The position numbers and the translations under genes were made by a program. The notes beneath the pieces were generated by a model that made no database searches, was not told where the DNA came from, and saw nothing but the letters and a program-made list of their open reading frames with translations. DNA of 52,582 nt from positions 1 through 52,582 of IMG/VR virus record IMGVR_UViG_3300013006_001903. The stretch is one strand, 5' to 3'. The DNA comes from a virus. Its lineage: Duplodnaviria; Caudoviricetes. Below are positions 526 to 28,285 of this stretch, piece by piece. The first letter of the stretch is position 1; each line of letters begins with the position of its first letter.

Positions 526-663
526 TTATTGTTCTACGGCATCGTAATCCTGTTTGCCGCAACCGCACTCTGGACAAAGAAAGTCGTCACCTAGTTCTTC
601 CCACTTTCCTTCTGTTTCTTCATTGTGGATGTGGCCACAAACAATGCAATGATATTCAGTCAT
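526..663 (-). CDS. Rubredoxin (45 aa, missed by ORF track)
   Basis: MTEYHCIVCGHIHNEETEGKWEELGDDFLCPECGCGKQDYDAVEQ: two CxxCG motifs and the W-x-x-L-x-D-D-F-x-C-P signature. Overlaps the end of rubrerythrin by 8 bp; GGAG upstream. Confidence 0.9.
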   Translation of the reverse strand: MTEYHCIVCGHIHNEETEGKWEELGDDFLCPECGCGKQDYDAVEQ

Positions 664-1117
664 GATGTAGTAAAATCTCCAGTTGTTGTTGATAAGCAGC
701 CGCATGACGTTCTTCTACTCGTTTAAGAGCAGCAAAACGTTTTTCTGCTTTCTTTAGAACTTCAATAAATTGCAATGCATGTTCTTCAGATTCTTTAATC
801 TGTTCTCTTGCAATTGCTAATGCTTTAACATCTTGTTCATGTTCAGCAATGGTTTCAAACTGTGGATACATTTCGGTGTATTCATAAGTCTCGCCAGCAA
901 TGGCTTTTTCGAGACATTCTTTGGTAGAAGGTTTACCGATAAGCAATTCCAGATGCCCCCAGGCATGTTTGATTTCTTGATCAGCAGTATGTTCGAAATG
1001 TTGAGCAATATCTTCATGCCCTTCTTCACGAGCAATACGAGCAAAGTATCGGTATTTGATATGTGCCATTGACTCGCCGGCCAACGCACTCTCTAGATTT
1101 TTCAGTGTAGCTGACAT
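656..1117 (-). CDS. Rubrerythrin (ferritin-like di-iron domain, no fused rubredoxin)
   Basis: NLESALAGESMA..KYRYFA, EIKHA, GETYEYTEMYP and EEHA di-iron motifs; AAGGAG SD. Confidence 0.9.
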   Translation of the reverse strand: MSATLKNLESALAGESMAHIKYRYFARIAREEGHEDIAQHFEHTADQEIKHAWGHLELLIGKPSTKECLEKAIAGETYEYTEMYPQFETIAEHEQDVKALAIAREQIKESEEHALQFIEVLKKAEKRFAALKRVEERHAAAYQQQLEILLHHD

Positions 1118-1171
1118 ATATTTCTCCTTATTTAGTTGTCACATGATATACTACTTTAATGAAAAAATGTA

Positions 1172-1990
1172 TCATTTTGATTGATATTTTTTAAAATTAT
1201 TAAAATTTAAAGTTAATATGCTTAAGATACCTATTATTATTCCCGGAATGTCGATTTCCCACCACTTGTTACCCATGTACCAAGAATTTGGAATCTTATG
1301 ATGGTTTTGGTGCCATCCGTCAAACGCAAAATATCCCCAGAATAAGTTATTATTAGATTCGTCATTGAGTTGTACTGTTCTATAATTTTCTAAATTGTTA
1401 TGCGGACTGTGAAGTTTAGAATTTAAATAATTTTTTATCAAAACAACAAGAGCTATTCCGGGCATCCAAGTTGTCAAGAACCAATTAACAGAAGTTGTCA
1501 TGATTATAAGGAACCATGTACTGGCAGTTATAAAAAGACCGTATCTACTAAAAAATATTTGAATCCTATCATTGAGTAAGTCGTAAGCATATTTTAAACT
1601 AAAATTATGATAGGGATATAGGAATTGTATTTTCCACCTGTTTAAATATAATGGAGAATGGGGGTCTAATTTGGTATCTGCAAACTTATGATGTAATCTA
1701 TGTTGTGCAGAAAATACAATAGAATTGCCTAATAGACTTTGATTAGCAATCCATAGTCCTATTATATCAAGCCATCTAGGAGCGTGCCATGATTTATGTG
1801 CGAACCTTCTATGATGAAATAGTTGTTCTGCACACCCAACTAGATAATATACACTAAAAATTTTCCAGTATTCTGTCCAGGGCAATGACACAAGGGCGTA
1901 TGCTAGACAAATGTAGGAGAATATAGATGCAATTAATACTATAGGTCTATGAAAATTTATAAAATTTTCAATTTTTTTAAATTGATTCAT
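1172..1990 (-). CDS. Membrane fatty-acid desaturase family protein #1
   Basis: His boxes HHRRFAH, HRLHH, HQNHH; DPHSP; KWWEID; TM segments. Confidence 0.85.
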   Translation of the reverse strand: MNQFKKIENFINFHRPIVLIASIFSYICLAYALVSLPWTEYWKIFSVYYLVGCAEQLFHHRRFAHKSWHAPRWLDIIGLWIANQSLLGNSIVFSAQHRLHHKFADTKLDPHSPLYLNRWKIQFLYPYHNFSLKYAYDLLNDRIQIFFSRYGLFITASTWFLIIMTTSVNWFLTTWMPGIALVVLIKNYLNSKLHSPHNNLENYRTVQLNDESNNNLFWGYFAFDGWHQNHHKIPNSWYMGNKWWEIDIPGIIIGILSILTLNFNNFKKYQSK

Positions 1991-2811
1991 CGTAGAAAAT
2001 CAGTAATACAAATTCTATTTACACTGCCTTTTTTATAAAAGTTGTATGCTGGATCAGAGGTAGTGGCCAAATAAATTACATCGGACGGGGTTAGTCCATG
2101 TGTTTTACAAAATAATTCTTGTTGATGTCTATGTTTTTTATACAAATAATCTAAACTAAAATTTTTAAATAACTCAATTGTTAATTTTAAATTATTGCTA
2201 TTAAAATAAAGGTTTCTTAACAATCCACCTAGTGGTATAGATGGTGTTCTCTTAAAAACATACCCAATCCTAAGTTCCGATAGTCCAAACATTTTACTTA
2301 ACCCAACATATACTGTATTAATATTTTTGTTTATTTCTATTTTTTCTATACGACATGATCCTATGTATGCACAGTCTAATGCAATGTCTTCGTGAGTGTT
2401 TATTATTTCATTCCAGTCACTTATGTAATTTCCGTCAATACTACTTGGATTTGTGATATACAACATGTCTCCGGTGTTATAATTTATATTCTTAGGTAAG
2501 TTTAACTGTAGCCAATCATATTCTCCGTCAAATGTTTTTATTGTTTTATTTCTACATTCTACAGCTAATGTATTTAAACCGTCAGTAATTCCGTTGACTG
2601 GATACATAAAAGGAAATTCGCTTAGATCTATAATCGGCAAAAAATATTTAACTATTGATTCCTTTGTATCTCTAAGTAATTGGTGCTTGGTTTCTATATT
2701 TTCTTCAACCAAGTAGTTTTTTAAAATAAACTCCCGGACAACGTGTTTTATGTCTGCATCGAGATACGCTGTTATTTTTCTGCTTTTAGGTAATTGATCA
2801 ATTAGTGTCAT
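1987..2811 (-). CDS. PLP-dependent enzyme (class I/II aminotransferase-like)
   Basis: NPSSIDG, LDCAY and GLSKMFGLSELRIG (Schiff-base Lys) motifs. Confidence 0.7.
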   Translation of the reverse strand: MTLIDQLPKSRKITAYLDADIKHVVREFILKNYLVEENIETKHQLLRDTKESIVKYFLPIIDLSEFPFMYPVNGITDGLNTLAVECRNKTIKTFDGEYDWLQLNLPKNINYNTGDMLYITNPSSIDGNYISDWNEIINTHEDIALDCAYIGSCRIEKIEINKNINTVYVGLSKMFGLSELRIGYVFKRTPSIPLGGLLRNLYFNSNNLKLTIELFKNFSLDYLYKKHRHQQELFCKTHGLTPSDVIYLATTSDPAYNFYKKGSVNRICITDFLR

Positions 2812-3533
2812 TTAGCTAATCTTAAAAATATACACAAGGGTTTTAAAAATTTTCCAGGATCGGAGTCGCTACTTTTATAAGGGTGATCGTGATGATTTTT
2901 ATGATAATCTGCTAGAGAAAACCATGCCCATATGTAATTATTGTAGGGTCTTTTCTTTATAGGATCATGCTCAAAAATTGAATTAGAAATTTGTTCAAGC
3001 ATGAATACTAATCCCGATGCCATAATTAGTCCCAATGCTACATCTATAGAAATTAACGATATAATCAATATTGTACACCATATTATGTAAGTCTTATTTC
3101 TATGTAAAAAATAAAGGAATTTATAATCATCTTCTGGATAATCTTTAATTAAAGATTGATATCTAAGTATAATATTATCTATATTATACATCCATCCTAT
3201 AAAACACCGAAATACCCCGTTAGCTGGTCCAAAGTAATCTTTTTCTGTATCAGCGTATCGATGATGATACCTATGACTTAGTGTAAAGCCTAATATATCT
3301 CCTTTAAGGACAAATAAGAATATAAACCCGATAGTGTTTTCGGCGATTCTTGTGAGAATAAATTGTTTATGAGCAATTGCTCTGTGGGCTAAATTATATG
3401 CAAATAGGTAGCTTAAAATGTAAAAAATTATGCATGACACAATAGTTAGTTGTGATATGTCTACAAATATAGGGGACAATATTGTTATCAGCAATATCGG
3501 AATTATAACTAAAAATTTATATAAATTTCCCAT
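2808..3533 (-). CDS. Membrane desaturase #2 (divergent, short C-terminus)
   Basis: HRAIAH, HRYHH, HKNHH. Confidence 0.8.
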   Translation of the reverse strand: MGNLYKFLVIIPILLITILSPIFVDISQLTIVSCIIFYILSYLFAYNLAHRAIAHKQFILTRIAENTIGFIFLFVLKGDILGFTLSHRYHHRYADTEKDYFGPANGVFRCFIGWMYNIDNIILRYQSLIKDYPEDDYKFLYFLHRNKTYIIWCTILIISLISIDVALGLIMASGLVFMLEQISNSIFEHDPIKKRPYNNYIWAWFSLADYHKNHHDHPYKSSDSDPGKFLKPLCIFLRLAK

Positions 3534-3534
3534 T

Positions 3535-3777
3535 TTACTTTTTTATCAATTCGTCAACAGCATTAGCTAATCCCCCTAGGGTTCTAACTCCGTCTAATCT
3601 ATCTTCAGGAATGAGAATTTTAAATTCATCTTCAATGAGCATTACCATTTCCATTGCGTCTAAACTGTCTCCTCCGAGATCATCGATAATGTGAGTAGTG
3701 CCGCTCATTTCAATTTTTGATTTCTTGAAATGCTTTTTAGCGATGCTGACTACTTTATTTAAAGTTTCTGTTTCCAT
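3535..3777 (-). CDS. acpP: Acyl carrier protein
   Basis: 80 aa; DDLGGDSLDAMEMVMLIEDEF phosphopantetheine Ser motif. Confidence 0.92.
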   Translation of the reverse strand: METETLNKVVSIAKKHFKKSKIEMSGTTHIIDDLGGDSLDAMEMVMLIEDEFKILIPEDRLDGVRTLGGLANAVDELIKK

Positions 3778-4543
3778 TTTTAAAATCCTTTGAAATAAGT
3801 TTTCCTAATAGTCCTTCTAAATCTAATTCCCACCATTTGTTTGTTAAAATTAGCTTTGAAGGATCTGCATGATGATTATTGTGCCAACCAAAACCTAAAG
3901 TAATAATACCTAATATTACATTATTTTGACTAGATTCAGATGTGTTATAATTTCTGTAATTTCCCGGAAAGTTACTTAAATGTAAAATAGTATTTACAGT
4001 CCCTAACCTCACATGCTCAATAATATATGCTATCAGGTATCCGTACAGTATATCTAAATTTATCAGGTAAAGCAACCCCATAAAGATTAAATTTATAAAA
4101 ATAAAATTTTTAGTTGTAAAATTGATTGCATCATCTCTTGATGCCTTAACAAGATTGATTACGCTAGCTCGATCTTCAAAAATACTTTCTATTCTTGTTT
4201 TATTCAAACTCCAGAAATAGAATGCTTGTAAGAAACCGTTTTTAGGACTATGTATATCGCTAGCAGTATCAGTGTGTCTATGATGGTGCCGGTGTTGAAC
4301 CTGCCAATATGCTGTGCTACTATATGCGCTAATAGTTGCCCAGAATGCTAAAATCCAATGTGTAAATCTATTCACACTGAATTGGTTATGTGCGAAGTAT
4401 CTATGACCTGCTGTACCATTCCCAAATGCTATCAACAGCCACACTAAAAATATGAATATTTTTTCTTCTATTAAAAATGCTGACACTACACCTAAAATAG
4501 TAAGTGTTACATTAAAAACGATATATTGTAGAGTTTTTGGCAT
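3755..4543 (-). CDS. Membrane desaturase #3
   Basis: HRYFAH, HRHHH, DIHSP, GWHNNHH, KWWELD. Confidence 0.88.
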   Translation of the reverse strand: MPKTLQYIVFNVTLTILGVVSAFLIEEKIFIFLVWLLIAFGNGTAGHRYFAHNQFSVNRFTHWILAFWATISAYSSTAYWQVQHRHHHRHTDTASDIHSPKNGFLQAFYFWSLNKTRIESIFEDRASVINLVKASRDDAINFTTKNFIFINLIFMGLLYLINLDILYGYLIAYIIEHVRLGTVNTILHLSNFPGNYRNYNTSESSQNNVILGIITLGFGWHNNHHADPSKLILTNKWWELDLEGLLGKLISKDFKNGNRNFK

Positions 4544-5324
4544 CTTTAACTATAAAAAATTTATCAACAAACCAAGCACAAATATCAAACTCCCCTTTAT
4601 TAAAGGCTTGATTGTACTTGGTAGGATCATGATGATGATTGTTATGGTAACCTTCTCCTAGGCTTCCCCATGCCATGAAATGATTATTATGACTGTTATC
4701 AGGAGTATTGTAAGTCCTATAACTTCCTGGAATTTTTAAATGATCTAGTCCTACAACTGCTAAATTTGCAGCAAGATGATAATGGCCGGCAGGTAACAAG
4801 AAGCCGAATAAAAATAACTTCCAATCTATTAATAATGTAACTATTGCAATAACATACCAAAATTTAAAATAATGTCGTTCAATGAACACCAGTGTAGGAT
4901 CTTTCATTAAATCTTTTATACGAAATTCGACACCTTTTTTTGCAAACCACTTATATCCTCTAAATTCCCACGCACCTGTAATAGTATGCCAGAAGCTAGT
5001 AACTGGGCTATGTGTATCTTTCTCAGTATCTGCAAACAGGTGATGATGACGATGGTTCATTGCATAAACTATAGGACTTTTAGATGCCAACAGGATTGTC
5101 CAATAAGAAAGAAGCTTATGTTTAAACAATGTTGTCTGGAAACTTCTGTGAGTGAAGTATCTATGAAATGCAATATTGTTTCCAATTACTTTATTAAATT
5201 GTGCTATAAAATATGAAACCCAGAATAACGTCCAATCGTTTATTGATATGCAATACCACATACTAAGGGGAATACTCAACCAAGCTGCTGAAAGTAGTAT
5301 TCTATGTTTCCATTCTGTTTTCAT
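4512..5324 (-). CDS. Membrane desaturase #4
   Basis: HRYFTH, HRHHH, DTHSP, GEGYHNNHH. Confidence 0.88.
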   Translation of the reverse strand: MKTEWKHRILLSAAWLSIPLSMWYCISINDWTLFWVSYFIAQFNKVIGNNIAFHRYFTHRSFQTTLFKHKLLSYWTILLASKSPIVYAMNHRHHHLFADTEKDTHSPVTSFWHTITGAWEFRGYKWFAKKGVEFRIKDLMKDPTLVFIERHYFKFWYVIAIVTLLIDWKLFLFGFLLPAGHYHLAANLAVVGLDHLKIPGSYRTYNTPDNSHNNHFMAWGSLGEGYHNNHHHDPTKYNQAFNKGEFDICAWFVDKFFIVKDAKNSTIYRF

Positions 5325-6055
5325 TTTTTTAGAAATTTAATAATTTGGTAAGATGGATCAACTTCAGACCATTTGTTTTTAAGATTTGCGTTGCCTGGAT
5401 TTATGTGATGATTCTTGTGGAGGGTGCTTCCTCCGGATAAAAATGCTAACCACGTTATATTTATAGCGGTATATTCTCCATCTACTGCTTTATGTAGCAG
5501 TGAGTTGATTAACATCTCTGAATGAAATGTTAAGATCATAGCAGCCAACAACGACATTCCAATAGGTGGACTGATAAGAAATACTAATACCAATGATGAA
5601 AGTACAAAGTGTTTACATAGTTTTTCTATCTTGATTAATTGAGTATCTTTCAAGTAATCTCTTATAACGAAAATAGGAACATCCATTGGCTTCAGTAACC
5701 ATCCAAAATATGAAACATAAAATCCCTTACTGGGAGAGTGTGGGTCTAAAGAAGTATCACTGTGAGCATGATGATATCTGTGTATCCTGGACCAAGTGAT
5801 AGGACCTCCCATCAATCCAAAACATCCTATTACTGCTAGTGCATACTTTATGGCGTTGTTCTTAGGTTCCCACGACTTATGTGAAAACAGTTTATGAAAT
5901 CCTGCCTGTATGCCTGCCCAATATATTAGTATATAGAATATTAAAAAATAAAAAATATTAATACCGATAAAAGGCAATAGTATCAAAAATAAAATCTGTA
6001 ATGGAAGATTGAATTTAAGATAATATGATCTAGATACATCTGCTAAAGAGTTCAT
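5321..6055 (-). CDS. Membrane desaturase #5
   Basis: HKLFSH, HRYHH, DPHSP, HKNHH. Confidence 0.88.
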   Translation of the reverse strand: MNSLADVSRSYYLKFNLPLQILFLILLPFIGINIFYFLIFYILIYWAGIQAGFHKLFSHKSWEPKNNAIKYALAVIGCFGLMGGPITWSRIHRYHHAHSDTSLDPHSPSKGFYVSYFGWLLKPMDVPIFVIRDYLKDTQLIKIEKLCKHFVLSSLVLVFLISPPIGMSLLAAMILTFHSEMLINSLLHKAVDGEYTAINITWLAFLSGGSTLHKNHHINPGNANLKNKWSEVDPSYQIIKFLKK

Positions 6056-6819
6056 TTTAAAAACTTGTCAATTATTACAGCACTCATATCCCATTCCCAA
6101 GCCTTCTTAGTAAATGCAAAATTATATTCACTTGGTTTAGCATGATGATTATTATGCAACCCTTCTCCTAATGTTAACCAGTTCCAGAAATGACTATTAA
6201 CAGTTTCATCATTGGTATTAAAATTTCTGTATCCTTGACTTGGTAGGTGTAGGGGTAGACTTAATACAGCAGAGCTCCACCAACTAAATCCAGCAGGTAT
6301 CATATAACAAAACAGAACAAGGTTAATATCAATTGCGGCAAGTATCAATATATATGATAATATCACCAACAAATAATATTTGTGTAACTTAATTAGAAAA
6401 GGATTCTTAAGAAGATCTTTGATCATGCCTAACGGTACTACCTTTGTAGGATTATCTTTATACCAGTGCCAGAAACTTCTCCAATATCCTATTTCGTGAG
6501 GACTGTGTAAATCTTTTCCTCTATCGCTATTAAGATGGTGATATCTATGTACTGAGACATATTGTAGGGTTGTTCCGGTGGTACTTAATACAGCCAACAC
6601 CGCTACAATCTTTTCTTTCCATGCTGGCATTTTAAAACTTCTATGTGTGAAATATCTATGTTGTCCAATGCTTGCTCCTACTTTGCTAATCAACAATACT
6701 GCAAATACTAAAGATAGATAGTATTCTATACTTGCGAGATATGTGAGGTATATTAAACCAGGTAATACAGCCCATGTGTTAATCTGCTGTAATGTTCTCA
6801 GTATTACTATGTTATTCAT
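6052..6819 (-). CDS. Membrane desaturase #6
   Basis: HRYFTH, HRYHH, DLHSP, GEGLHNNHH. Confidence 0.88.
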   Translation of the reverse strand: MNNIVILRTLQQINTWAVLPGLIYLTYLASIEYYLSLVFAVLLISKVGASIGQHRYFTHRSFKMPAWKEKIVAVLAVLSTTGTTLQYVSVHRYHHLNSDRGKDLHSPHEIGYWRSFWHWYKDNPTKVVPLGMIKDLLKNPFLIKLHKYYLLVILSYILILAAIDINLVLFCYMIPAGFSWWSSAVLSLPLHLPSQGYRNFNTNDETVNSHFWNWLTLGEGLHNNHHAKPSEYNFAFTKKAWEWDMSAVIIDKFLK

Positions 6820-7577
6820 GATTTTTTCATAAAAAGTTTTTCGATGATTATTGCAGGAAAGTCAAATTGACCTTTCTCTGTTACATATGAGTAAGATCCT
6901 GCATTAGCATGATGCTGATTATGATATCCTTCATTCCATGTAAACCACTTTAAGAATGTATTGTTGCTGCTTTTATCATCAGTATTAAACGGTCGTGTAC
7001 CATATTCTGGCCTATGTCCTAATACATTTACTAAACCTGCGGCTATAAAATTATGTATAACCATATAACTTAGTAACCAGCCAGTTAGTGTAGGTCCTAG
7101 GATAACTAATGATAATACAAGCAAGAGTGTGTTTACTTTAAAATAATGTTTATGCATCCATTTATGCACAGGGTCCCTAATTAGATCTGACACAAATTTA
7201 TTCTCAATAGCATACTTTTCATTTCGAACATAGAACGTAACTTTCCACCAAGGTCGTGTTATATGAGGATCTTTATCTGTATCTGCATATGCATGGTGTT
7301 GTCGATGCACTCCTGTGTATGTTATACTAGTTCCGTACAGTAAGGGTGTAGCAAACGCATGTAGTATATATTCTTTCCACCTTGATGTTTTAAAACTCTT
7401 ATGACACCACAGTCGATGTAATGCTACTTCGTTGCCTACTGCGTTAAAGATTTTTGCAATGATCATACCTAGCAATAGCATAGGAAAACTAAAATTAGTG
7501 ATAAGAGTAAACAATAAAATAGTAAAATGAATGCCAAGCAATAACATTAGTTTATGGTGAAAGGTTAAATTTTTCAT
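6816..7577 (-). CDS. Membrane desaturase #7
   Basis: HRLWCH, HRQHH, EGYHNQHH; close paralogue of #8. Confidence 0.88.
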   Translation of the reverse strand: MKNLTFHHKLMLLLGIHFTILLFTLITNFSFPMLLLGMIIAKIFNAVGNEVALHRLWCHKSFKTSRWKEYILHAFATPLLYGTSITYTGVHRQHHAYADTDKDPHITRPWWKVTFYVRNEKYAIENKFVSDLIRDPVHKWMHKHYFKVNTLLLVLSLVILGPTLTGWLLSYMVIHNFIAAGLVNVLGHRPEYGTRPFNTDDKSSNNTFLKWFTWNEGYHNQHHANAGSYSYVTEKGQFDFPAIIIEKLFMKKS

Positions 7578-8376: not shown

Positions 8377-8388
8377 TTAAAATATACT

Positions 8389-9549
8389 TTATGTTTTATC
8401 TACTCTGATTCCCCCACTAACTCCCCCAAACCCAAAACTTAATTTTGCAAAATTTAATGTTTCTTTATAAATTGGATTCTTTAAGACAATGGTATGCTTA
8501 CAATCAACTGTGTTGTCAGTGCCAGAAGTATACGGGATCCAACCTTGATTTAATCCTGCTAACGAATACGCCAGTTCAATTCCGGCGGAACTAGACATAG
8601 TATGTCCCACGGACCCCTTTAATCCATAAATGTATGTTTCATAGGGCAGGGAATCTAGAGCTAATATCTCTGCTTCATCGCCTACTTTAGTTGCAGTAAT
8701 GTGACAGTTAATCGAATCAAGTTTAATGTTATTATTGTCTGTAATTTCGTTTAGCAAGAACTTCCCTGCAGAACCGTCTGGGCTAGGTGCAGTTAAATTA
8801 TAATAGTCGTTATATAGACTAATTTTTCCAATAGTCCCAAGATTTTTTCTAACATTATTTTCTTTAGTTAAAATGTAACAAGCGACTCCTTCACCTAATG
8901 CCATTCCGGATCTGTTAACATCGAACGGCTTTACTGATTCCTTAGTACATACTCCCATGCTATTAAAAATATAAGTAGTGTAAGGATGTGTTGCACAGTC
9001 AACACCAAACACTAATACTGCTTCGCATTGATTTGAATTTAAAAACTTTTCAGCAATATCAAACGCTGTTATAAACGCACTACACGCTTGATTAATCATA
9101 AAGCTAGGACCTGTAAGACCAAGATGCCTACTTACAGTTGTACATATAGAACTTTGTGTTACTGTTGCTCCCCAACGAGGGCTAATCATTCTTTTTTCTG
9201 CAAATAGTGCTTTCCAAACCATGCCGCCTGTTTCTTGAGACCCTTGTAAGGTTACTCCTATTACAGGTGTATTTTTTGGTAGGTCCATCCCCTCCACACA
9301 TCTTCCTGCAGCTAGTACAGCTAACTTAATTGCACGGGGCATATTAGATTCTAGATAATTTAATTTTTCTAATTCTAAATCTAAGTCATCATCCGTTAAT
9401 GGAATATCAAATTTTGGAAGTCCTGTTAAAGGTGCATTTTCGTGCCTTGTAAAATTAGCAGAATTACCTTTTAGATAATTTTCAATGCAATTACTATAAC
9501 TAGTTCCATTAGCATCTAAGAGTTCAACATTGTTAATTACAGTTTTCAT
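8389..9549 (-). CDS. Beta-ketoacyl-ACP synthase (FabF/FabB-like)
   Basis: Cys-His-His triad intact (NQACSA, NCHITAT, KGSVGHT); PFDVNRSG..LGEG; SFGFGG. Confidence 0.88.
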   Translation of the reverse strand: MKTVINNVELLDANGTSYSNCIENYLKGNSANFTRHENAPLTGLPKFDIPLTDDDLDLELEKLNYLESNMPRAIKLAVLAAGRCVEGMDLPKNTPVIGVTLQGSQETGGMVWKALFAEKRMISPRWGATVTQSSICTTVSRHLGLTGPSFMINQACSAFITAFDIAEKFLNSNQCEAVLVFGVDCATHPYTTYIFNSMGVCTKESVKPFDVNRSGMALGEGVACYILTKENNVRKNLGTIGKISLYNDYYNLTAPSPDGSAGKFLLNEITDNNNIKLDSINCHITATKVGDEAEILALDSLPYETYIYGLKGSVGHTMSSSAGIELAYSLAGLNQGWIPYTSGTDNTVDCKHTIVLKNPIYKETLNFAKLSFGFGGVSGGIRVDKT

Positions 9550-10322
9550 TTTTTAACCATTCTAATAAACCATGAAGGTGGATCAATTTCCCACCACTTC
9601 TCACCTTGTTTCGACTGATAAGGACGAGTGTGATGATTATTATGCCATCCTTCTCCTAAACTCATAATATTTGCAATCCAGCTATTCTTAGCTGTGTCAT
9701 TAACCTGATGATTTATATAACCGTGTATATGTCCAAATACTGTAACTGCCGCTACTCCATTCAAACAACCAGTAGCCGGCATGGCGTATGCAAAAATTAC
9801 TAACCAGGGATTGATTAACAATAACAGTATAACATAAACAAAGATAACTTTAAAGTAATGTTTGTGCAAAAATACAATCAATGGATCTTTTATCACATCG
9901 CGAATCAACTTCTTGCTAATATCAGCTCTTTTCCAGTCGTATGTATATGCTTTCCACCAACCTATATGACGAGGAGAATGCGGATCCTTTTCAGTATCGG
10001 CATGTTGATGATGGTACCTATGTAATGCTACCCAACTAATGATGGATCCTAATGTAGCAAGTGTACCAATTACTGCTAATAATACTTCTACAGATCTGTA
10101 AGTCTTATATGTTCGATGGCTAAAATATCTATGATAGCCGGCGTTTGCCCCGATAACTCCAAAAATTAAAAACGATATGATAAATGTGGAAAAGTAACCT
10201 ATACTAAAATCAACAATAAGGTAACAAATGCCTATGATAGACAACAGGATGTTAACTAACTGTAGAGATTTAATTTGTGTATTGAAGTTTTGGTTTGAGA
10301 AAAAAGAAAACATATGTGTCAT
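9546..10322 (-). CDS. Membrane desaturase #9 (most canonical Delta-9/DesC-like)
   Basis: HRYFSH, WVALHRYHH, DPHSP, GEGWHNNHH, KWWEID. Confidence 0.9.
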   Translation of the reverse strand: MTHMFSFFSNQNFNTQIKSLQLVNILLSIIGICYLIVDFSIGYFSTFIISFLIFGVIGANAGYHRYFSHRTYKTYRSVEVLLAVIGTLATLGSIISWVALHRYHHQHADTEKDPHSPRHIGWWKAYTYDWKRADISKKLIRDVIKDPLIVFLHKHYFKVIFVYVILLLLINPWLVIFAYAMPATGCLNGVAAVTVFGHIHGYINHQVNDTAKNSWIANIMSLGEGWHNNHHTRPYQSKQGEKWWEIDPPSWFIRMVKK

Positions 10323-10369
10323 ACTCTTCAGTGTAGCACATATTTATTAGCAATTTTCTGGTTAAGAAA

Positions 10370-11299
10370 TTAAGTAGGGTGTAATAATTCTCTAACTAGT
10401 TCTTCGTAGATACTCCAACCTGGGGGTTGCAAAGAAAACTCAACAAAGGTATCTGTCGATTCTGTAAAGGGAGAAGAGTTGATTTCACCTAAAACCCAAC
10501 CATTGTCAGTTTCTAAAAAATCAATGCCTGCATGTTTTAAATTATATAGTTTACATATCTTTTTAGATATTTTAATTAGACTAGAGTCTACAGTTTTACT
10601 AATATCGTATGCCTTAGTTTGAGTGATAGTGTTCTCGTAGTTAAATTTCCAGTGAACTTCACTTCGTCTAAGGAAGGCTCTAATCATTTCGCCATTTAGC
10701 ATCTGTATACGTACACAATCAGAAAATTTATTATTTTTTGATACAAACTCTTGTACAAAGAAATCTTCGTAAGAATCTCCTAATGGAGACCTAGAGTTTA
10801 TTAGAGAGATCATAGAATACAAATCGCAAAATTCTAATAGATTTTTGATTAGATAGTGACCTTGTCCTAATCCGCTATTGGGAACTTTTACTACACAAGG
10901 ATATCCTATTTCTTGTTCAACTAATTTGGCAATATTTCCCGTCATGTTGTTTGTAGGACCTGCTAATGTGTTTAGATCCATATTTTTAGGAACTGGTATT
11001 CCTATATTGCCACAGTCAATCGCAGATAAAAATTTGTCATCTGCTCTTGCTGAATCTCTAACATGGTTGATAACATGTACACCCTTTGACTCTAATATAG
11101 TTAAAAATCTAAAATGCGACATGTTTACAGGACCCATCATGTTAAAAACTGCAATGGGAATCTTTTTGTTAAATTGCACACCGGGCGTTACTGGTGTAAC
11201 TTCTACTCCAAATTTCTGTCCGGCTTTTTTCCAGTCTTCCATTTCGCTAAGTCTATAGGGAAATACAGTTTGAGGTACATTAAAAGAAAGATAAATCAT
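10370..11299 (-). CDS. RimK-like ATP-grasp ligase
   Basis: DDK, GYPCVVK, GxGxG, VQEFV, GIDFL and EINSSP motifs. Confidence 0.8.
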   Translation of the reverse strand: MIYLSFNVPQTVFPYRLSEMEDWKKAGQKFGVEVTPVTPGVQFNKKIPIAVFNMMGPVNMSHFRFLTILESKGVHVINHVRDSARADDKFLSAIDCGNIGIPVPKNMDLNTLAGPTNNMTGNIAKLVEQEIGYPCVVKVPNSGLGQGHYLIKNLLEFCDLYSMISLINSRSPLGDSYEDFFVQEFVSKNNKFSDCVRIQMLNGEMIRAFLRRSEVHWKFNYENTITQTKAYDISKTVDSSLIKISKKICKLYNLKHAGIDFLETDNGWVLGEINSSPFTESTDTFVEFSLQPPGWSIYEELVRELLHPT

Positions 11300-11311
11300 G
11301 AAATTTTAATA

Positions 11312-11686
11312 TTATGGAGTATCGATAGGTACTTCGACACCTTCTGTTGCCAAATATATATCCGCCGGATGTACAATAATTCCAACAGAATTACAGTATT
11401 CTTGTCTTGTTACAAGCCAAGAACTCACAATAGGATCAGCTGACCAATTTGCAAAGTCAACAGGATCAACACCGTGATATAGACTGTTGTGGTATAGGGT
11501 CAAGCCGTCTTCACTTTCTGCCCATTCCTCTGATAATTTTCCTTGGCTTATGTAAGTAAGGTTATAGTATTCTTTTACATATTCTGGTATAACAGTAGTC
11601 CACCAGGGAATATTTACATTAGGTCTATCATATTTCCTAATAACCCTAAGATGAGGTGTTGACAATGTTTTAAATTGCATGGTCAT
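11312..11686 (-). CDS. Hypothetical protein
   Basis: 124 aa ORF with GGGAG SD, overlapping the end of acpS. Confidence 0.6.
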   Translation of the reverse strand: MTMQFKTLSTPHLRVIRKYDRPNVNIPWWTTVIPEYVKEYYNLTYISQGKLSEEWAESEDGLTLYHNSLYHGVDPVDFANWSADPIVSSWLVTRQEYCNSVGIIVHPADIYLATEGVEVPIDTP

Positions 11687-12002
11687 AATTTCTCCCCTGA
11701 AAATGTAACGTATTTATTGCAACAGCTACGCAATATTCGCGTTCGTGACTAATGCTGACGTATAGGTTAGGGTGTTCGAATACATAAGGCGCACCGTTTG
11801 TATGATTTAAGATAGAAAACTTTTTTGAACTATTTGTTAATTTAAATATAGCTTCTTTTGCAGCCCACCTACTGGCAATATATTGTAGATGATTCTTGCT
11901 CTTCTTTAATTCTGCTTTTTCAGATTCCGTCAATATCTTTTTTGACCAGAGGTTTATATTTTTTTTAAACCTGTTAATTTTAACTATATCGATACCAATC
12001 AT
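11670..12002 (-). CDS. acpS: Holo-ACP synthase (4'-phosphopantetheinyl transferase)
   Basis: MIGIDIV, SRWAAKEA, GAP, VSISHE motifs. Confidence 0.92.
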   Translation of the reverse strand: MIGIDIVKINRFKKNINLWSKKILTESEKAELKKSKNHLQYIASRWAAKEAIFKLTNSSKKFSILNHTNGAPYVFEHPNLYVSISHEREYCVAVAINTLHFQGRNYDHAI

Positions 12003-12003
12003 T

Positions 12004-12588
12004 TTAATTATAAACCATTTTTGATTTTGAAAATTGTATTACCACAATTGTTTTTTCATTTAGTCCATCCATACCAGCTAACAACTTTTTAAAACCTAAA
12101 TATTTAGATTTAGTATGGGGTTCTAAAATTTCAACCTCAGATGTCATATACTGGGGAAATTCTTCTAGCATTGCATCCTTTACTCTTTTCCATGTATACG
12201 AAAATCTGGTTACAAGAAATCCTGTGTAAATATTTTTACTTTCTGCAATCTCTATACATTTTTGCATAACAGTATTAAAATTTAAAGGTTGCTGTGTTCT
12301 CTTAGAAAATAACTGATCAGAATCTTCATATAGGAATAAAGGACTCCACGCTGGTATTGCTTCCCAAAATAGCATTACGCAAAATGCTAACAACTTTTTC
12401 TCTGCGTTTCGAACTCCTACAATGTGCATATTATAGTTTTCTAAAAATATTTTTTCAATAAGATCAAGTGCTCTGCGCTGTAACCCAGTTGCTACTGTAT
12501 CAACTCCGTAAATATACTGATGCTTTTTAACCAAACGAATGAGATCCGGTAAGTCTTCTTCAGTACATAGATAAGCTTCTCGTTGCAT
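12004..12588 (-). CDS. Hypothetical, possibly GNAT-fold acyltransferase
   Basis: 194 aa with an alpha/beta pattern (EEDLPDL..., LLAFC, CIEIAESKNI); weakly resembles 15175..15750. Confidence 0.45.
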   Translation of the reverse strand: MQREAYLCTEEDLPDLIRLVKKHQYIYGVDTVATGLQRRALDLIEKIFLENYNMHIVGVRNAEKKLLAFCVMLFWEAIPAWSPLFLYEDSDQLFSKRTQQPLNFNTVMQKCIEIAESKNIYTGFLVTRFSYTWKRVKDAMLEEFPQYMTSEVEILEPHTKSKYLGFKKLLAGMDGLNEKTIVVIQFSKSKMVYN

Positions 12589-12594
12589 ATAAAA

Positions 12595-12626
12595 TATTTA
12601 TGTGCTACAATAATGCTTTATAAATA
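12595..12626. promoter_or_regulatory. Divergent T4-like late promoter boxes
   Basis: ATAAATA on - (12601-12595), 6 nt before start 12588; TATAAATA on + (12619-12626), 4 nt before ATG 12631. Confidence 0.6.
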
Positions 12627-12630
12627 TTTT

Positions 12631-13470
12631 ATGTTTGATAAACCTCCAAAGATTTTTGCACATGTTAGTGCATTGCATGACAAAAATTTTGTAGTACCTG
12701 AATATATTTTAAATAAACAGGACGACACTGTAAATTTGTTTCATAGATTTTGTCCGCACAGAATGTATCCGTTAGCAGAGCCCGGCTTCCACGTTGAAGA
12801 GATTACCTGCAAGTTTCATGGCTTACAATGGGATAAAAACGGTATCCCAATTAACAATTCAAAAAAATTAAATTGTGGAACTGCAACTGTTGGTCGATCA
12901 GGATTGGTATTTAAAGATTTTATAGAACCAGATCATCGATGGGTTGATGATCTAGAAAAAGAAACAACACTGGTATATAGTCATTCTCTTCAAGGTAAGA
13001 GCGAAGGAAGCTGGCTATGGCTTATGGATGCCGAGGCTGATTACTTACATGTACAAAAGAATGGAATTCATCCACGGCTTTCAGAACAGATTGATTTAGA
13101 TAATACTGTTATGGATCAGGGTGACGGATGGATATTCCAAGAACACACCCCCGGCTGGTGGTCAATTTATATCTATCCTTATACCTTTGTTGAGCATAAG
13201 AACGGATGCTTGTCGGTAAACACTATTATCCCTGCAGACAAAAACACAGAATGGAAATTTGAATGGATCACACAATTTTATTATGCTCCTAATGTTTCAC
13301 ATAGCGATCGTACTGAATTTGAAACATTAGAAACTGTGTTTAAGGAAGATGTTGCTGCAATTGAAAAGATAAAAACAAAATTCTTTCCTGTTATCGAATC
13401 ACAATCAAAATACGAGCAGCATTGTATACATTGGGGAAAGTGGGTCCAAGAACACTTAATTAAGGATTAA
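12631..13470 (+). CDS. Rieske non-heme iron oxygenase alpha subunit
   Basis: CPH...CKFH Rieske ligands; DAEADYLHVQKNGIH mononuclear Fe site; EDVAAIE. Start placed at MFDKPP, just after the late box. Confidence 0.85.
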   Translation: MFDKPPKIFAHVSALHDKNFVVPEYILNKQDDTVNLFHRFCPHRMYPLAEPGFHVEEITCKFHGLQWDKNGIPINNSKKLNCGTATVGRSGLVFKDFIEPDHRWVDDLEKETTLVYSHSLQGKSEGSWLWLMDAEADYLHVQKNGIHPRLSEQIDLDNTVMDQGDGWIFQEHTPGWWSIYIYPYTFVEHKNGCLSVNTIIPADKNTEWKFEWITQFYYAPNVSHSDRTEFETLETVFKEDVAAIEKIKTKFFPVIESQSKYEQHCIHWGKWVQEHLIKD

Positions 13471-14376
13471 CTTTCTTAATTCTTCTTCAGTGTATTCGTA
13501 GTGAGTATTAGATGCTTGATCCATATATGTTGTCTGAAAGTGAATCATAAAATCTGGACGAGTTACTATAGGATCTCCGTCTGCACCTTCGTATCCTACT
13601 AATTTTATTTTATCTTGTACATCGGGCCAAATACTCCTATGGATAGCAGACCTGCTACTCCATGAACTAATCTTTCCCGGGATTTCGTCGTTGAGTAATT
13701 TTTTAACTAACGGTACTTCATTGTACGACAATAATAATTCGGGTGTATATTCATACCAATCTCCTATTGCTATTCTACCAATTGATTTAGCATAAGTAGA
13801 ACACGAGTATCCGTCTTCGTTTAAAATTAATCTCCATGTAGATTTCTTACTAAAATCTTTATTTGCATCCCTGCGCCAGTACGGTTCACCGTCGCAAAAA
13901 ACTGGAATATTATCAAGGTAATCGAACCATGCGAGTCTTGCTATTCTTCCTGCTCTTGGAATTAGGGTCTTTTGAAATAAATCAAAGGCATCGTTTTCAA
14001 AAAATTTTTGTAAATTAAAATCTATTATTTTATAATTAATGTTTAGATCTTTACAGAGGGCAACGGCACAATTCACATCTCGAATATTATAATTATTCTC
14101 TAATCTAAAAATAAATGTATTGTGTTTAATTCCTACAGCATGAAATGTTCGCACAACCATTTCGCTGTCAACTCCACCTGATAACATTACATCAAATGGT
14201 TCATTATACGAATCTCGCATAATCCGGGCATTATTAAATAATGCATCTCTATAAGAAGGAAGATTTTTATCTATTTGTTTATTAAAATGAATTTTAAAAA
14301 TAGAATTTGAATCAGACTTTTTGCCATATTCTACAGCATCAAAACTGTAGCTCATCCATTGATTGTGTCGTTCCAT
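13456..14376 (-). CDS. PP-loop adenine-nucleotide alpha-hydrolase superfamily enzyme (asparagine-synthase-like)
   Basis: VMLSGGVDSE PP-loop. Confidence 0.65.
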   Translation of the reverse strand: MERHNQWMSYSFDAVEYGKKSDSNSIFKIHFNKQIDKNLPSYRDALFNNARIMRDSYNEPFDVMLSGGVDSEMVVRTFHAVGIKHNTFIFRLENNYNIRDVNCAVALCKDLNINYKIIDFNLQKFFENDAFDLFQKTLIPRAGRIARLAWFDYLDNIPVFCDGEPYWRRDANKDFSKKSTWRLILNEDGYSCSTYAKSIGRIAIGDWYEYTPELLLSYNEVPLVKKLLNDEIPGKISSWSSRSAIHRSIWPDVQDKIKLVGYEGADGDPIVTRPDFMIHFQTTYMDQASNTHYEYTEEELRKLILN

Positions 14377-14396
14377 TAGTTGGTTCTAATTATTCA

Positions 14397-15194
14397 TTAA
14401 ATTTTAATTAGTTTAATTACAAGTGCTGAAATATCAATTTCCCACCACTTATCTCCAAAGTTAAATCTCTTAGGATATCGATGGTGATTATTATGCCATG
14501 CTTCGCCCCAACTAGGAATAGCCCATAACCAGTTATTAGTACTTTGATCATTTAGTGAATGCGACCTATATCCGCCCAGCCAATTTGGTTTGTGACCTAC
14601 ATAGTTAACGACATTGCTCATAATAGCAGTTATTGCAGCCGGCATCCAATGGAAAAATACCATCAACCAAAATCCCCCAATTAAAAATAGTACAAGGCTA
14701 TAAGTTGCAATAATAAGAAAATAATATCTGTGTAAGAATTGTTGATATCTGTCAGTTACTAATGCTCTCATTCTCCATTTTGTATCCTTGTCAACTTCGC
14801 TTATATAATCCATCATAAAGATTTTTACACCTTTATATAACGGACTATGCGGGTCGTTGGGCTTATCACTCTTTAAGTGATGGTTGATATGAATAGCTAC
14901 CCATGCAAGTGGACTACCAGTTCCTGCAAAACATCCTAATAACGAAAATAATTTAGTTAGCCAAGGAAATGTTTTATAACTGTTATGCGTCATTTGCCTA
15001 TGATATGTTACTACAATTCCGAGACATCCATAGATAAAATAGCCTAACAAAATTAACGATAGTTCAGTTGTACCGATACCGTAGATATATGTACCTAATA
15101 TTGATCCTACTAATGTTGTAATTAAAAATATCTGTGCGCCAGCAGTGCTGCTTGAAAAATAATTCTTCATGAAATTATTTAGTATGCGGATCAT
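14397..15194 (-). CDS. Membrane desaturase #10 (start may be 15170)
   Basis: HRQMTH, WVAIHINHH, DPHSP, GEAWHNNHH, KWWEID. Confidence 0.9.
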   Translation of the reverse strand: MIRILNNFMKNYFSSSTAGAQIFLITTLVGSILGTYIYGIGTTELSLILLGYFIYGCLGIVVTYHRQMTHNSYKTFPWLTKLFSLLGCFAGTGSPLAWVAIHINHHLKSDKPNDPHSPLYKGVKIFMMDYISEVDKDTKWRMRALVTDRYQQFLHRYYFLIIATYSLVLFLIGGFWLMVFFHWMPAAITAIMSNVVNYVGHKPNWLGGYRSHSLNDQSTNNWLWAIPSWGEAWHNNHHRYPKRFNFGDKWWEIDISALVIKLIKI

Positions 15195-15750
15195 ACCCTT
15201 TAAGTTTTCTAGCTTTTATAACAATGTTATCTGGTTTTAATTCTTGTCCCATTAATCTCCAATACAATTCATATTGAGGTTTTGTATTCGCCGGAACAAC
15301 GTCTAAAGTTATTAAATCGTACCTTCCATTAAAACCCCAAGGGTTCTTTTTCCACTGGCGTTCATATACACGCTCTAAACGTTCTGCAATGCAGTAAAAA
15401 TACTGAAAGTAGCCTTTTTCTTCAGCCATTTCAAATGCATATTTAAACAATAACCCAAATTCGGGTCTACTAAAACTAAAGCGCTCTTTAAACACAGTAG
15501 TAAATAATCCTGTTATTGCCCAAAATTTTCCGCGCATTTTACTTTCATAAAAACCAATGCTGACCCAGCTAACTAAGTTGTTATTTTCAAAATATCCAAT
15601 ACTTATTAAGTTATCCGAATCTTTCATTAGTTGACGACACTTCTCGGTAGATACTGGCCGAGTACCGCCCACTTTTTTATTCGATAATGCAATTCTAACG
15701 CATTCATCGGTGTACTCGGGCCCAAGTATTTGAACACCAGTAGTTATCAT
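15175..15750 (-). CDS. Hypothetical, possibly GNAT-fold
   Basis: ISIGYFENNNLVSW; AFEMAEEKGYFQYF resembles GNAT beta4/alpha3; translationally coupled between two desaturases. Confidence 0.45.
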   Translation of the reverse strand: MITTGVQILGPEYTDECVRIALSNKKVGGTRPVSTEKCRQLMKDSDNLISIGYFENNNLVSWVSIGFYESKMRGKFWAITGLFTTVFKERFSFSRPEFGLLFKYAFEMAEEKGYFQYFYCIAERLERVYERQWKKNPWGFNGRYDLITLDVVPANTKPQYELYWRLMGQELKPDNIVIKARKLKGYDPHTK

Positions 15751-16499
15751 TTTTTAATTAAGTTGATAATAGCTGCTGCTGGATCTATTTCAAAAGATTT
15801 AATCTTGTGGCTTATTAATGCAGGATTCTTATGATGATTATTGTGCCACGCATCGCCCATTATGAAAGGAAACAAAAATACATTATTAGTGCTGTTATCA
15901 TTAGTTTCAAAATTTCTATAACCAAATGTATGACCGAAATAGTTAAACGAATTTTGAGAAACCTGTACTAACACCACAGGCAATGCCCACAAAAAATACA
16001 GTAGTTGAATATCAACAATTGCCAAAAGCAAAATATAAAAAAATACATATAGTAGATAATGTTTGTTAAGGTTAAGTTGCTCTTCTGTCATCAAATCCTT
16101 GACAAGAAATTTATTAATCTTATCACTATGATTAGTGAGATGTTTCAAGCCAAATAATTTAAATCCTAAATTTTTTGGGCTGTGCGGATCTTTATCTGTG
16201 TCGCTAAATCCGTGATGTAGTCTATGAATGTATACCCAACCGATCGGGCTACCTCTGCACATGATTACGCTGACAAACGTAAACAACTTTTTTATTATAC
16301 CGTATCTAAATTCAAAACTCTTATGTGAATAATATCTGTGCAGGGTAATGCTTATGCCTACTATATTAAAAATATAGAACACTAACACTGTAGATGTTAT
16401 AGATAAGGCAGTAAAGTCTACACCGAAGAACCCAATAATTGTAATTATTATTGCAAGTAATTGTAATTTTGATACAGCAGAGGAACTGGCAGAGAACAT
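15747..16499 (-). CDS. Membrane desaturase #11
   Basis: HRYYSH, WVYIHRLHH, DPHSP, GDAWHNNHH, FEID. Confidence 0.9.
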   Translation of the reverse strand: MFSASSSAVSKLQLLAIIITIIGFFGVDFTALSITSTVLVFYIFNIVGISITLHRYYSHKSFEFRYGIIKKLFTFVSVIMCRGSPIGWVYIHRLHHGFSDTDKDPHSPKNLGFKLFGLKHLTNHSDKINKFLVKDLMTEEQLNLNKHYLLYVFFYILLLAIVDIQLLYFLWALPVVLVQVSQNSFNYFGHTFGYRNFETNDNSTNNVFLFPFIMGDAWHNNHHKNPALISHKIKSFEIDPAAAIINLIKK

Positions 16500-16503
16500 A
16501 GAG

Positions 16504-16543
16504 ATATTTATATTACGTCATTTTCGTTTAATAAGAATATAGG
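16504..16543. repeat. 40-bp imperfect direct repeat, copy A (gene 3' end plus TATAAATA)
   Basis: 37/40 identical to 17079..17118 by manual alignment. Confidence 0.85.
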
Positions 16544-17062: not shown

Positions 17063-17078
17063 CAGATAGTATACAAAA

Positions 17079-17118: not shown

Positions 17119-17143
17119 TAGTAATATTCTTTAACCAACTGTT

Positions 17144-17680: not shown

Positions 17681-17684
17681 TAGT

Positions 17685-28281: not shown

Positions 28282-28285
28282 TTTT

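Follow-up and report, generated by a model that had tools for sequence, protein, structure and literature searches.

The phage desaturases described to date are, to our knowledge, products of solitary genes, with a presumed role in adjusting the fluidity of the host membrane. The cyanophage vFADs are single DesC-like genes whose products were shown to be delta-9 acyl-lipid desaturases (excerpts of Roitman et al., PMC5776448). Polyyne biosynthesis has a core of seven genes of five kinds, three of these kinds being an acyl carrier protein (ACP), at least three desaturases, and a rubredoxin (excerpts of PMC8406139); polyyne formation is thiotemplated, and its membrane desaturases act on a designated ACP (excerpts of PMC9828172). 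The DNA analyzed here, a 52,582-base window that is the whole of virus record IMGVR_UViG_3300013006_001903, carries at positions 526 to 16499 a cluster in which eleven membrane desaturase-like genes stand together with genes for an ACP, a beta-ketoacyl-ACP synthase (KS), and an AcpS-type transferase. A preliminary description, made from the letters of the window, knew of no described cluster of such content, and none was found: literature searches, and the main texts of papers on large or huge phages, gave no account of a phage cluster with multiple desaturases or with KS and ACP. Our best explanation, held tentatively and as one joint claim, is that the window is a fragment of a very large uncultured freshwater phage, a jumbo myovirus with a T4-type capsid, and that the cluster is a variable, modular lipid-oxidation island that is partly ACP linked. 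The genes present and their catalytic motifs, together with conservation, selection, modularity, and viral context, are what the analysis shows directly.

Nearly all open reading frames (ORFs) of the cluster lie on the minus strand and are closely packed; by their coordinates, 12 of the 20 same-strand junctions overlap and the widest gap is 54 nt, which bears out the mostly coupled arrangement noted earlier. The ACP gene is placed between Des2 and Des3, its start overlaps Des3 by 23 nt, and the Des3-ACP neighborhood is kept in two of the related IMG/VR contigs (G003 and G004). These contigs, retrieved via the KS and Des10 of the window (itself G000), are G001 (207.8 kb), G002 (96.9 kb), G003 (112.9 kb), G004 (51.6 kb), and G005 (26.4 kb). 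The desaturase and carrier genes are listed below; ratios of nonsynonymous to synonymous substitution (dN/dS), here and throughout, are pairwise Nei-Gojobori values against the nearest orthologue.

1172 to 1990, minus strand: Des1, SCD1-type membrane desaturase-like, His boxes complete, no Pfam hit at E 0.01; dN/dS 0.084
2808 to 3533, minus strand: Des2, 27.7 bits to PF00487 (cut-off 29.7), His boxes complete; dN/dS 0.105
3755 to 4543, minus strand: Des3, PF00487 at 4.9e-16
4512 to 5324, minus strand: Des4, PF00487 at 6e-11, 98% identical to G004; dN/dS 0.022
5321 to 6055, minus strand: Des5, PF00487 at 1.4e-12; dN/dS 0.088
6052 to 6819, minus strand: Des6, PF00487 at 1.2e-13; dN/dS 0.092
6816 to 7577, minus strand: Des7, PF00487 at 3.6e-18, sister paralogue of Des8; dN/dS 0.089
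7552 to 8376, minus strand: Des8, PF00487 at 4.2e-15; dN/dS 0.084
9546 to 10322, minus strand: Des9, PF00487 at 1.3e-15; dN/dS 0.092
14397 to 15194, minus strand: Des10, PF00487 at 7.3e-18, the most widespread type
15747 to 16499, minus strand: Des11, PF00487 at 6.7e-15
3535 to 3777, minus strand: ACP of the type II fatty acid synthase (FAS) kind, PP-binding at 3e-11
8389 to 9549, minus strand: KS, a FabF-like beta-ketoacyl-ACP synthase with both ketoacyl-synt domains
11670 to 12002, minus strand: AcpS-type 4'-phosphopantetheinyl transferase, Pfam ACPS at 2.8e-14

The eleven desaturase ORFs (241 to 274 aa) can be aligned over their full length, and the three complete His boxes ascribed to each of them in the preliminary description are confirmed: H65/H70 of box 1, H102/H105/H106 of box 2, and H234/H237/H238 of box 3, together with H201 and N220, are invariant in 11/11 copies. 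The Pfam FA_desaturase cut-off (29.7 bits) is exceeded by nine of them, the exceptions being Des1 and Des2. A profile built from the eleven matches mouse SCD1 (4YMK) at 6e-35 over 238 of 249 positions and a human stearoyl-CoA desaturase structure at 8e-33, and all 11 of its matches in the window fall within 1172 to 16499. Hydrophobic stretches near residues 5 to 65 and 140 to 190 are apparent on the Kyte-Doolittle scale in 9/11 copies, with fewer in Des1 and Des4 at the threshold used. With all metal ligands kept and a profile that matches SCD1, the eleven copies are predicted to be catalytically competent. The other copies are 21 to 35% identical to Des10; Des1, 92% identical to its G004 orthologue, also hits the protein annotated as FA_desaturase in pelagiphage Mosig (7.8e-14).

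Against G004, dN/dS is 0.022 to 0.105 for Des1 to Des9, 0.019 for the KS, 0.054 for the ACP, 0.098 for an aminotransferase-like gene, and inside the 0.02 to 0.105 range for an ATP-grasp gene. Against G001, a Rieske gene, a PP-loop gene, and Des10 give 0.084 to 0.104 (Des10, 0.104), and Des11 gives 0.188; in most comparisons with G003, synonymous sites are saturated. Judged from these pairwise ratios, Des1 to Des9 are under purifying selection; relaxed selection, which the preliminary description had treated as a reason to abandon its reading, is not seen, and the copies are not decaying.

Cellular references for the phylogeny were desaturases from four annotated plasmid cassettes: two Burkholderia gladioli plasmid cassettes with FAAL, desaturases, and ACP (L122, L123); a Streptomyces plasmid cluster with FAAL, three desaturases, ACP, hydrolase, rubredoxin, and P450 (L126), the gene set of which fits the polyyne core (excerpts of PMC8406139); and a cyanobacterial desC1 (Aulosira DesC1), the sole DesC used. 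A FastTree tree of 91 rows places the cellular references in one clade (98); 10/11 window copies group apart from them in a phage/environmental clade (89), and the remaining copy, Des3, has a long branch. A quick IQ-TREE tree (LG+C20, 40 rows), from which the third Streptomyces desaturase (long branch), one G001 copy, two thirds of the representatives, and the G002 to G004 orthologues were omitted, has a split with an SH-aLRT value of 97 between 7 cellular references and 33 phage/environmental rows. The cellular side consists of six alkyne/polyyne-cassette desaturases (L122, L123, L126) and DesC1; the other side holds all 11 window copies and the Mosig desaturase. This tree, a counterpart of the one called for in the preliminary description, separates every window copy from DesC1 and from the six cassette enzymes. 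Each window paralogue has its own orthologues in the relatives, the only sisters being Des7 and Des8 (100), and the window copies appear to be old, distinct paralogues.

Counted with the profile of the eleven, desaturase copies number 11 in the window, 9 in G004, 7 in G003, 3 in G001, and 2 in G002. When 1.84 billion representative proteins were searched with the profile, 12,892 matched at E <=1e-3 and 1,826 at <=1e-30; the best 150 of them are almost all 240 to 275 aa long, with a few of double length. The 120 listed matches of one profile search are all at least 65% identical to Des10, and these 120, like 10 representatives that were looked up, come from metagenome-type sources only. Five metagenomic proteins of 528 to 700 aa (P0242, P0243, P0251, P0252, P0285) contain two desaturase domains of this short-desaturase family per chain, perhaps as true fusion proteins, perhaps through gene calls that were left unsplit. 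The searches reveal a large short-desaturase family, in which oxidation enzymes of new regio- or chemo-selectivity may be found.

The ACP, the AcpS, and the KS with its Cys-His-His triad, all named in the preliminary description, are present by Pfam matches and by alignment to FabF. The best PDB matches of the ACP are FAS and mitochondrial ACPs, with its DSLD serine aligned; among the five records searched (the window and G001 to G004), it occurs in the window, G003, and G004 only. The KS matches FabF 4r8e at 6.9e-19 with Cys, His, and His aligned, and C156, H283, and H316 are invariant in 19/19 members of its clade. Its score against the NCBIfam fabF equivalog is 98.4 bits, which does not reach the cut-off of 493.75, and its best NCBIfam model is PRK09185 (114.9 bits, cut-off 407). 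The clade comprises 39 protein clusters at >=44% identity, all from metagenome-type sources; outside it, identity falls to <=31% (cellular KSs), and a search of the genomes of 185,579 species (one each) kept 80 loci, none more than 29% identical. By these searches, the KS clade would seem restricted to viral and metagenomic records. The AcpS has homologues in G003 and G004 (53 to 54% identical). FabD (Acyl_transf_1), FabA/Z (FabA), and FabG/I-type SDR (adh_short_C2) were each found in 0/5 records, with positive controls detected, as were FAAL (PF00501; control positive in 12/14 genomes) and thioesterase (PF00975; positive control detected). The phage would thus code for KS, ACP, and AcpS only, as expected from the earlier proposal that host FAS II is borrowed.

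Protein identities shift abruptly along the window, and for this reason we read the cluster as a mosaic: on these comparisons, it is a fusion of two modules joined in this genome, not one fixed assembly line, and the single private ACP assembly line of the preliminary description is not supported. Module A (~1172 to 12588) would comprise Des1 to Des9, ACP, KS, AcpS, an ATP-grasp ligase, and an aminotransferase-like gene, and recurs in G003 and G004; module B (12583 to 16499, with neighbors to ~18900) would comprise the Rieske gene, a PP-loop gene, Des10, a GNAT gene, and Des11, and appears to be a widespread core of the phage group. From Des1 through the ATP-grasp gene (1172 to 11299), proteins are 84 to 99% identical to G004 and, where present, 50 to 86% identical to G003, in which Des1, the aminotransferase-like gene, and Des2 are without orthologues. 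The 124-aa ORF, AcpS, and 194-aa ORF (11312 to 12588) are merely 23 to 54% identical to G003 or G004, and from the Rieske gene onward (12583 to 22121) proteins are 28 to 91% identical to G001, the 208 kb of which contain no ACP or KS. The other genes of the cluster and its edges are as follows.

526 to 705, minus strand: rubredoxin with a CxxCG...CPxCG motif; NCBIfam rubredoxin at 1.1e-7, below cut-off
656 to 1117, minus strand: rubrerythrin-type ferritin-like di-iron domain without a rubredoxin domain of its own; Pfam Rubrerythrin at 1.2e-15
1987 to 2811, minus strand: short class-I aminotransferase-like protein, 274 aa; Aminotran_1_2 at 0.0085 and hisC at 1.9e-5, both subthreshold
10370 to 11299, minus strand: RimK/LysX-like ATP-grasp ligase; RimK at 3e-10, rimK_fam at 4.8e-22 and LysX at 6.1e-19, the latter two below cut-offs
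11312 to 11686, minus strand: 124-aa protein without Pfam or NCBIfam hit; 32% identical homologue in G004
12004 to 12588, minus strand: 194-aa protein, possibly GNAT-like, bounding module A; without Pfam or NCBIfam hit
12583 to 13470, plus strand: Rieske [2Fe-2S] protein, with which the part resembling G001 begins; Pfam Rieske at 5.5e-8
13456 to 14376, minus strand: PP-loop ATP-pyrophosphatase of the adenylating amidotransferase/ligase type; SGGxDS invariant in 29/29 homologues
15175 to 15750, minus strand: predicted GNAT-fold acyltransferase without Pfam hit; model pLDDT 85.7
17696 to 18298 and 18280 to 18900, plus strand: two ORFs of 200 and 206 aa that travel with module B; no Pfam hit

The extent of both modules was gauged from further loci. 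A scan with an alignment of Des10 orthologues gave 46 viral loci, each consisting of a central Des10-type gene and <=10 kb of flanking DNA in either direction. Homologues of Des10 occur in 45 of them, of Des11 in 43, of the PP-loop gene in 41, of the 200-aa ORF in 36, of the 206-aa ORF in 26, of the GNAT gene in 22, of the Rieske gene in 9, and of the rubrerythrin in 5; KS is found in 1 and ACP (by BLAST) in 1, to which an ACP profile adds L138 (8e-15, strong) and L150 to L152 (1.2e-4, weak). One desaturase is present in 4 loci, two in 28, three in 8, four in 1, five in 2, six in 2, and eight in 1, and the layout of one locus (L147) resembles that of the window. Seen from the KS side, at least two desaturases lie within 10 kb in 6/6 loci, namely, the window, G003, G004, L032, L171, and L144 (KS 33% identical); the KSs of L032 and L171 are 53 to 54% identical to that of the window. 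A metagenome scan with a KS alignment used patterns that proved too general and placed 1 of 80 kept loci (L171) in the KS clade, so this co-occurrence rests on six loci. The joint occurrence of desaturases, ACP, AcpS, and KS that the preliminary description proposed to look for was found for module A, in G003 and G004, and Des10 loci almost always go without ACP and KS.

Several neighbors of the desaturase genes were noted in these records. In L032 (8374 to 9993) and L171 (2507 to 4115), a 341-aa PP-loop protein (SGGIDST) and a conserved 197-aa protein lie upstream of the KS. In G004 (L030, 13818 to 15626), the orthologues of Des7 and Des8 are separated by two genes for ferritin/rubrerythrin-like proteins, each of ~300 aa. 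In G001 (L010, 10724 to 11596), an NMO-family protein directly follows Des10; the NMO family includes the FabK enoyl-ACP reductase. A B12-binding radical SAM enzyme of 505 aa (window 23275 to 24792) has 27 to 29% identical homologues beside desaturase modules in L147, L167, and G001. Two window ORFs without Pfam hit (16508 to 17062, 17144 to 17680) show, by eye, HxD...H motifs typical of cupin/2-oxoglutarate-type oxygenases, and a homologue of the latter lies beside desaturases in the KS loci L032 and L171.

The tentatively favored reading, a modular island partly linked to an ACP, draws its link between ACP and desaturases from the overlap of the ACP gene with Des3, from the conservation of this position in G003 and G004, and from the desaturases found in all six KS loci; the precedent for desaturases working on a designated ACP is polyyne biosynthesis, as described in excerpts of PMC9828172. 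Other observations weigh against it. The ACP link is not general, given the single KS and the single BLAST-detected ACP among the Des10 loci; two loci (L132, L167) carry six desaturases each and an aminotransferase-like gene, with no KS or ACP within 10 kb; and L032 and L171 carry KS with no detectable ACP. Mosig has a desaturase-aminotransferase pair without an ACP in the 8.5 kb examined. By homology search, the rubredoxin is not conserved with module A. The five records contain no acyl-loading enzyme (FAAL, FabD) and no releasing thioesterase. All of the records are fragments, which makes absences weak evidence.

These same loci bear on another account, which we consider rather doubtful, in which the enzymes remodel the membrane and nothing else: the desaturases would act on host membrane glycerolipids as vFAD does, each with its own preference for chain length, position, or head group, and KS, ACP, and AcpS would merely boost the fatty acid supply. 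Most related loci, with exactly two desaturases and no phage ACP, are in line with it, as is the SCD1 fold of the family, and the only phage desaturases that were tested are single DesC-like delta-9 acyl-lipid enzymes (excerpts of PMC5776448). Nine to eleven paralogues with so little identity, each under purifying selection, go far beyond the needs of fluidity control, however, and the ACP is translationally coupled inside the array in a conserved position. Moreover, the desaturases keep company with genes of the GNAT, PP-loop, ATP-grasp, and aminotransferase-like kinds, the window enzymes lie outside the clade of the one DesC reference used, and tblastn with Des10 against 50,697 phage records matched three records only.

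The favored reading of a modular, partly ACP-linked island may be spelled out as follows, although its substrate, order of steps, and product are ours to infer. Module A would constitute a minimal private acyl-carrier system, with a FAS-type ACP, an activating AcpS, and a FabF-like KS embedded among nine strongly diverged membrane di-iron enzymes of SCD1 fold, and module B would work without a phage ACP. During infection, the KS and the holo-ACP would draw acyl chains from the host type II FAS, for which the host must supply FabD, FabG, FabZ, and FabI. The desaturase paralogues, each with its own regio- or chemo-selectivity, would put several double bonds or oxygen functions into these chains, whether still carrier bound or already passed on to a lipid. 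An amine or amide head group would be made or attached by the GNAT, ATP-grasp, PP-loop, and aminotransferase-like enzymes, the amide-forming ones probably building it, and the infected cell would end up with a modified envelope lipid.

A bolder version, somewhat unlikely in our view, is that the cluster encodes the first virus-encoded thiotemplated lipid natural-product pathway, in which KS and a private holo-ACP would supply an acyl chain to nine (with module B, eleven) di-iron enzymes of diverged regioselectivity, gathered in a membrane complex, that install a run of double or triple bonds or oxygen functions before GNAT, ATP-grasp, and PP-loop enzymes link the chain to an amine as an amide. 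If this were true, the phage would make a lipid specific to it, with the envelope of the infected cell, competitors, or grazers as its target. More generally, if nine to eleven old, individually conserved paralogues do work with a KS, an ACP, and an AcpS of the phage, large phages would be capable of multistep lipid chemistry of their own; the cluster is compact (~16 kb) and directly testable by expression.

The rubredoxin is relevant to a further alternative, namely, that the cluster is a true pathway to alkynes or polyynes like those of JamABC or cay/pgn. An ACP, at least three desaturases, and a rubredoxin account for three of the five kinds of polyyne core gene (excerpts of PMC8406139), and thiotemplated formation (excerpts of PMC9828172) would suit the carrier genes. 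No FAAL or thioesterase is found, however, and Pfam scans of the cluster ORFs show no hydrolase family, hydrolase families besides PF00975 not having been searched by name; all 11 copies are split from the cassette desaturases in the trees (SH-aLRT 97, FastTree 98); and a rubredoxin homologue is found in none of G001 to G004, including both other carriers of module A. We regard this alternative as improbable: the polyyne reading of the preliminary description is not supported, and its polyene/polyyne assembly line is one possibility among several and wants its defining parts; the rubredoxin that it placed at the downstream end is there, but not as a conserved part of the cluster. The rubredoxin likely starts at an internal Met (~526 to 663). 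Rubrerythrin and rubredoxin (526 to 1117) are two overlapping ORFs in different frames and not one rubrerythrin chain. A LysW-like carrier for the LysX-like ATP-grasp enzyme was considered for 526 to 705 and rejected, the motif fitting rubredoxin; the ORF is also without the C-terminal Glu tail that LysW presumably has.

The remaining enzymes of the cluster are assigned with varying precision. The gene at 1987 to 2811, first described as a pyridoxal phosphate (PLP) enzyme, has family hits that stay below threshold, and is 38% identical (1.3e-45) to an annotated aminotransferase of Mosig. Because Mosig carries the desaturase-aminotransferase pair, this pair would be older than the cluster and is present in a cultured phage. 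In Mosig (L125, 3318 to 5357), a trio of Asp/Arg-hydroxylase-like, FA_desaturase, and short aminotransferase genes is adjoined by genes for an FMN reductase and a peroxiredoxin. The ATP-grasp ligase has a single PDB match, entry 3vpb, at 3.8e-5. The Rieske protein, 87% identical to that of G001, has a CPH...CKFH motif and cluster ligands aligned to 7qwt, so the [2Fe-2S] part of the Rieske oxygenase first proposed stands and the oxygenase part is putative. The PP-loop model (pLDDT 92.6) is matched by Foldseek to NMN/NAD synthetase and asparagine synthetase (AsnB) at ~1e-5 with TM 0.3 to 0.46, and because these TM values are low, it is assigned to the superfamily only. As to the two GNAT-like ORFs of the preliminary description, the model of 15175 to 15750 supports one by fold: its best Foldseek match is at 8.7e-8, 471 PDB matches have E <=0.001, and 49/49 of those listed are acetyltransferases. 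The other (12004 to 12588), with homologues in G003 and G004 that are 23 to 27% identical, has an ESM Atlas lead to GNAT/DUF1999 clusters (0.94 to 0.96, few shared features). The 200-aa ORF at 17696 to 18298 has a weak Atlas lead to Acetyltransf_1.

The viral context that the preliminary description wished to see checked on capsid and terminase genes comes from the relatives: the window belongs to a virus record, and contains no capsid, terminase, or tail gene in its 52.6 kb; Terminase_6C was found in 0/5 records. G002 carries a T4 gp23 capsid gene (1.7e-99), and its major capsid protein is 64 to 68% identical to those of cultured jumbo myoviruses of 285 to 469 kb; the cultured jumbo myoviruses with T4-type capsid that were compared are Vibrio phage 2.275.O, Sinorhizobium phage Phosso, Pseudomonas phage PA5oct, and Escherichia phage A4. 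The large ORFs of G001 are tail-fiber, baseplate-wedge, and virion structural proteins by PHROG matches. Proteins common to the window number 30 in G001, 14 in G002, 24 in G003, and 22 in G004, and G001 has 39 to 49 in common with each other relative. CheckV genome fractions of 58% (G001), 27% (G002), and 31% (G003) give, by arithmetic, a genome of ~360 kb. Megablast of the cluster against the 50,697 phage records found no match, and the remainder of the window matched tRNA-sized pieces only; the cultured jumbo myoviruses named above are not among the three tblastn matches of Des10 nor among 20 listed of 21 records matched by KS. That the window is a misclassified bacterial contig with a cellular biosynthetic cluster might be argued from its want of capsid, terminase, and tail genes and from a CheckV completeness of 2%. 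Against this stand the synteny and the 30 proteins that link the window to G001, a carrier of tail and baseplate genes, the eight tRNA genes of the window, relatives that reach viral contigs of 208 to 349 kb, and the failure to find the KS clade above 29% identity in the species genomes; on these sequence comparisons, a bacterial origin is very unlikely, close to negligible.

Beyond the cluster, eight tRNA genes (Gly, Thr, Cys, Trp, Leu twice, Ser, Val) lie on the minus strand among small ORFs at 22843 to 29621, between the lipid island and a ~30-kb glycan-building island (19787 to 52285). The latter encodes GT17-like, GT34-like, and other glycosyltransferases, three NDP-sugar epimerase/dehydratase-like proteins, a DegT-type aminotransferase, a cupin, a methyltransferase, split E1/transketolase-like subunits dependent on thiamine pyrophosphate, a kinase/nucleotidyltransferase fusion, and sulfotransferase-like, APS-kinase-like, shikimate dehydrogenase-like, and aldolase-like proteins. 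The exact sequence of the cluster was found in lake-water metagenome runs. Four lake-water metatranscriptome runs yielded 38 short contigs on the cluster, 37/38 of them >=99% alike, scattered over the rubrerythrin, Des1, the ACP region, Des4 to Des7, KS, Des9, ATP-grasp, the 124-aa ORF, Rieske, and Des10/GNAT; many cluster bins are uncovered in each run, which says nothing about silence. The presence of the cluster in RNA libraries is at most a hint of expression, as DNA can occur in such libraries.

With the glycan genes in view, it may be asked whether the substrate is a fatty acyl chain at all. The SCD1-fold enzymes could be hydroxylases, ketolases, or desaturases acting on another hydrophobic envelope molecule, such as lipid A/lipopolysaccharide acyl chains, hopanoids, carotenoids, or quinones, as part of a cell-surface remodeling island. 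The glycosyltransferases, NDP-sugar epimerases, sugar-type aminotransferase, and sulfotransferase-like and APS-kinase-like proteins of the other 30 kb favor such a role, as do the Asp/Arg-hydroxylase-like genes that accompany a desaturase in relatives of the window and in Mosig, and the FA_desaturase superfamily includes hydroxylases and ketolases. The profile, however, matches the acyl-CoA desaturase SCD1 over its full length, KS, ACP, and AcpS point to acyl chains, and the Pfam scans detected no terpenoid or quinone gene, so that we hold this account to be unlikely.

Set beside known systems, the cluster, in the favored reading a modular phage lipid-oxidation island, agrees with each in part. 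Like the cyanophage vFADs and the Mosig enzyme, which falls in the same phage/environmental clade as the window copies, the cluster is a case of delta-9/SCD-type membrane desaturases encoded by aquatic phages that are T4-like myoviruses; unlike these single genes, it has eleven diverged paralogues together with KS, ACP, AcpS, ATP-grasp, PP-loop, GNAT, and Rieske genes, and its enzymes are not DesC-like in the tree. As in type II FAS (FabF, AcpP, AcpS), the KS has the catalytic triad and both domains, and the ACP and AcpS are of the primary-metabolism type, whereas the KS scores far under the fabF cut-off and FabD, FabG, FabZ/A, and FabI-type genes were not found in the five records. With the alkyne and polyyne cassettes (jamABC; cay, pgn, ccn), it shares SCD-type desaturases beside a designated ACP, the desaturase adjoining the ACP in L122, L123, and L126 as in the window, as well as the presence of several desaturases and a rubredoxin; it differs from them in having KS and AcpS in place of FAAL and thioesterase, neither of which was found, in its 9 to 11 desaturases versus one to three, in the separate clade to which these belong, and in its residence in a phage rather than on a bacterial chromosome or plasmid.

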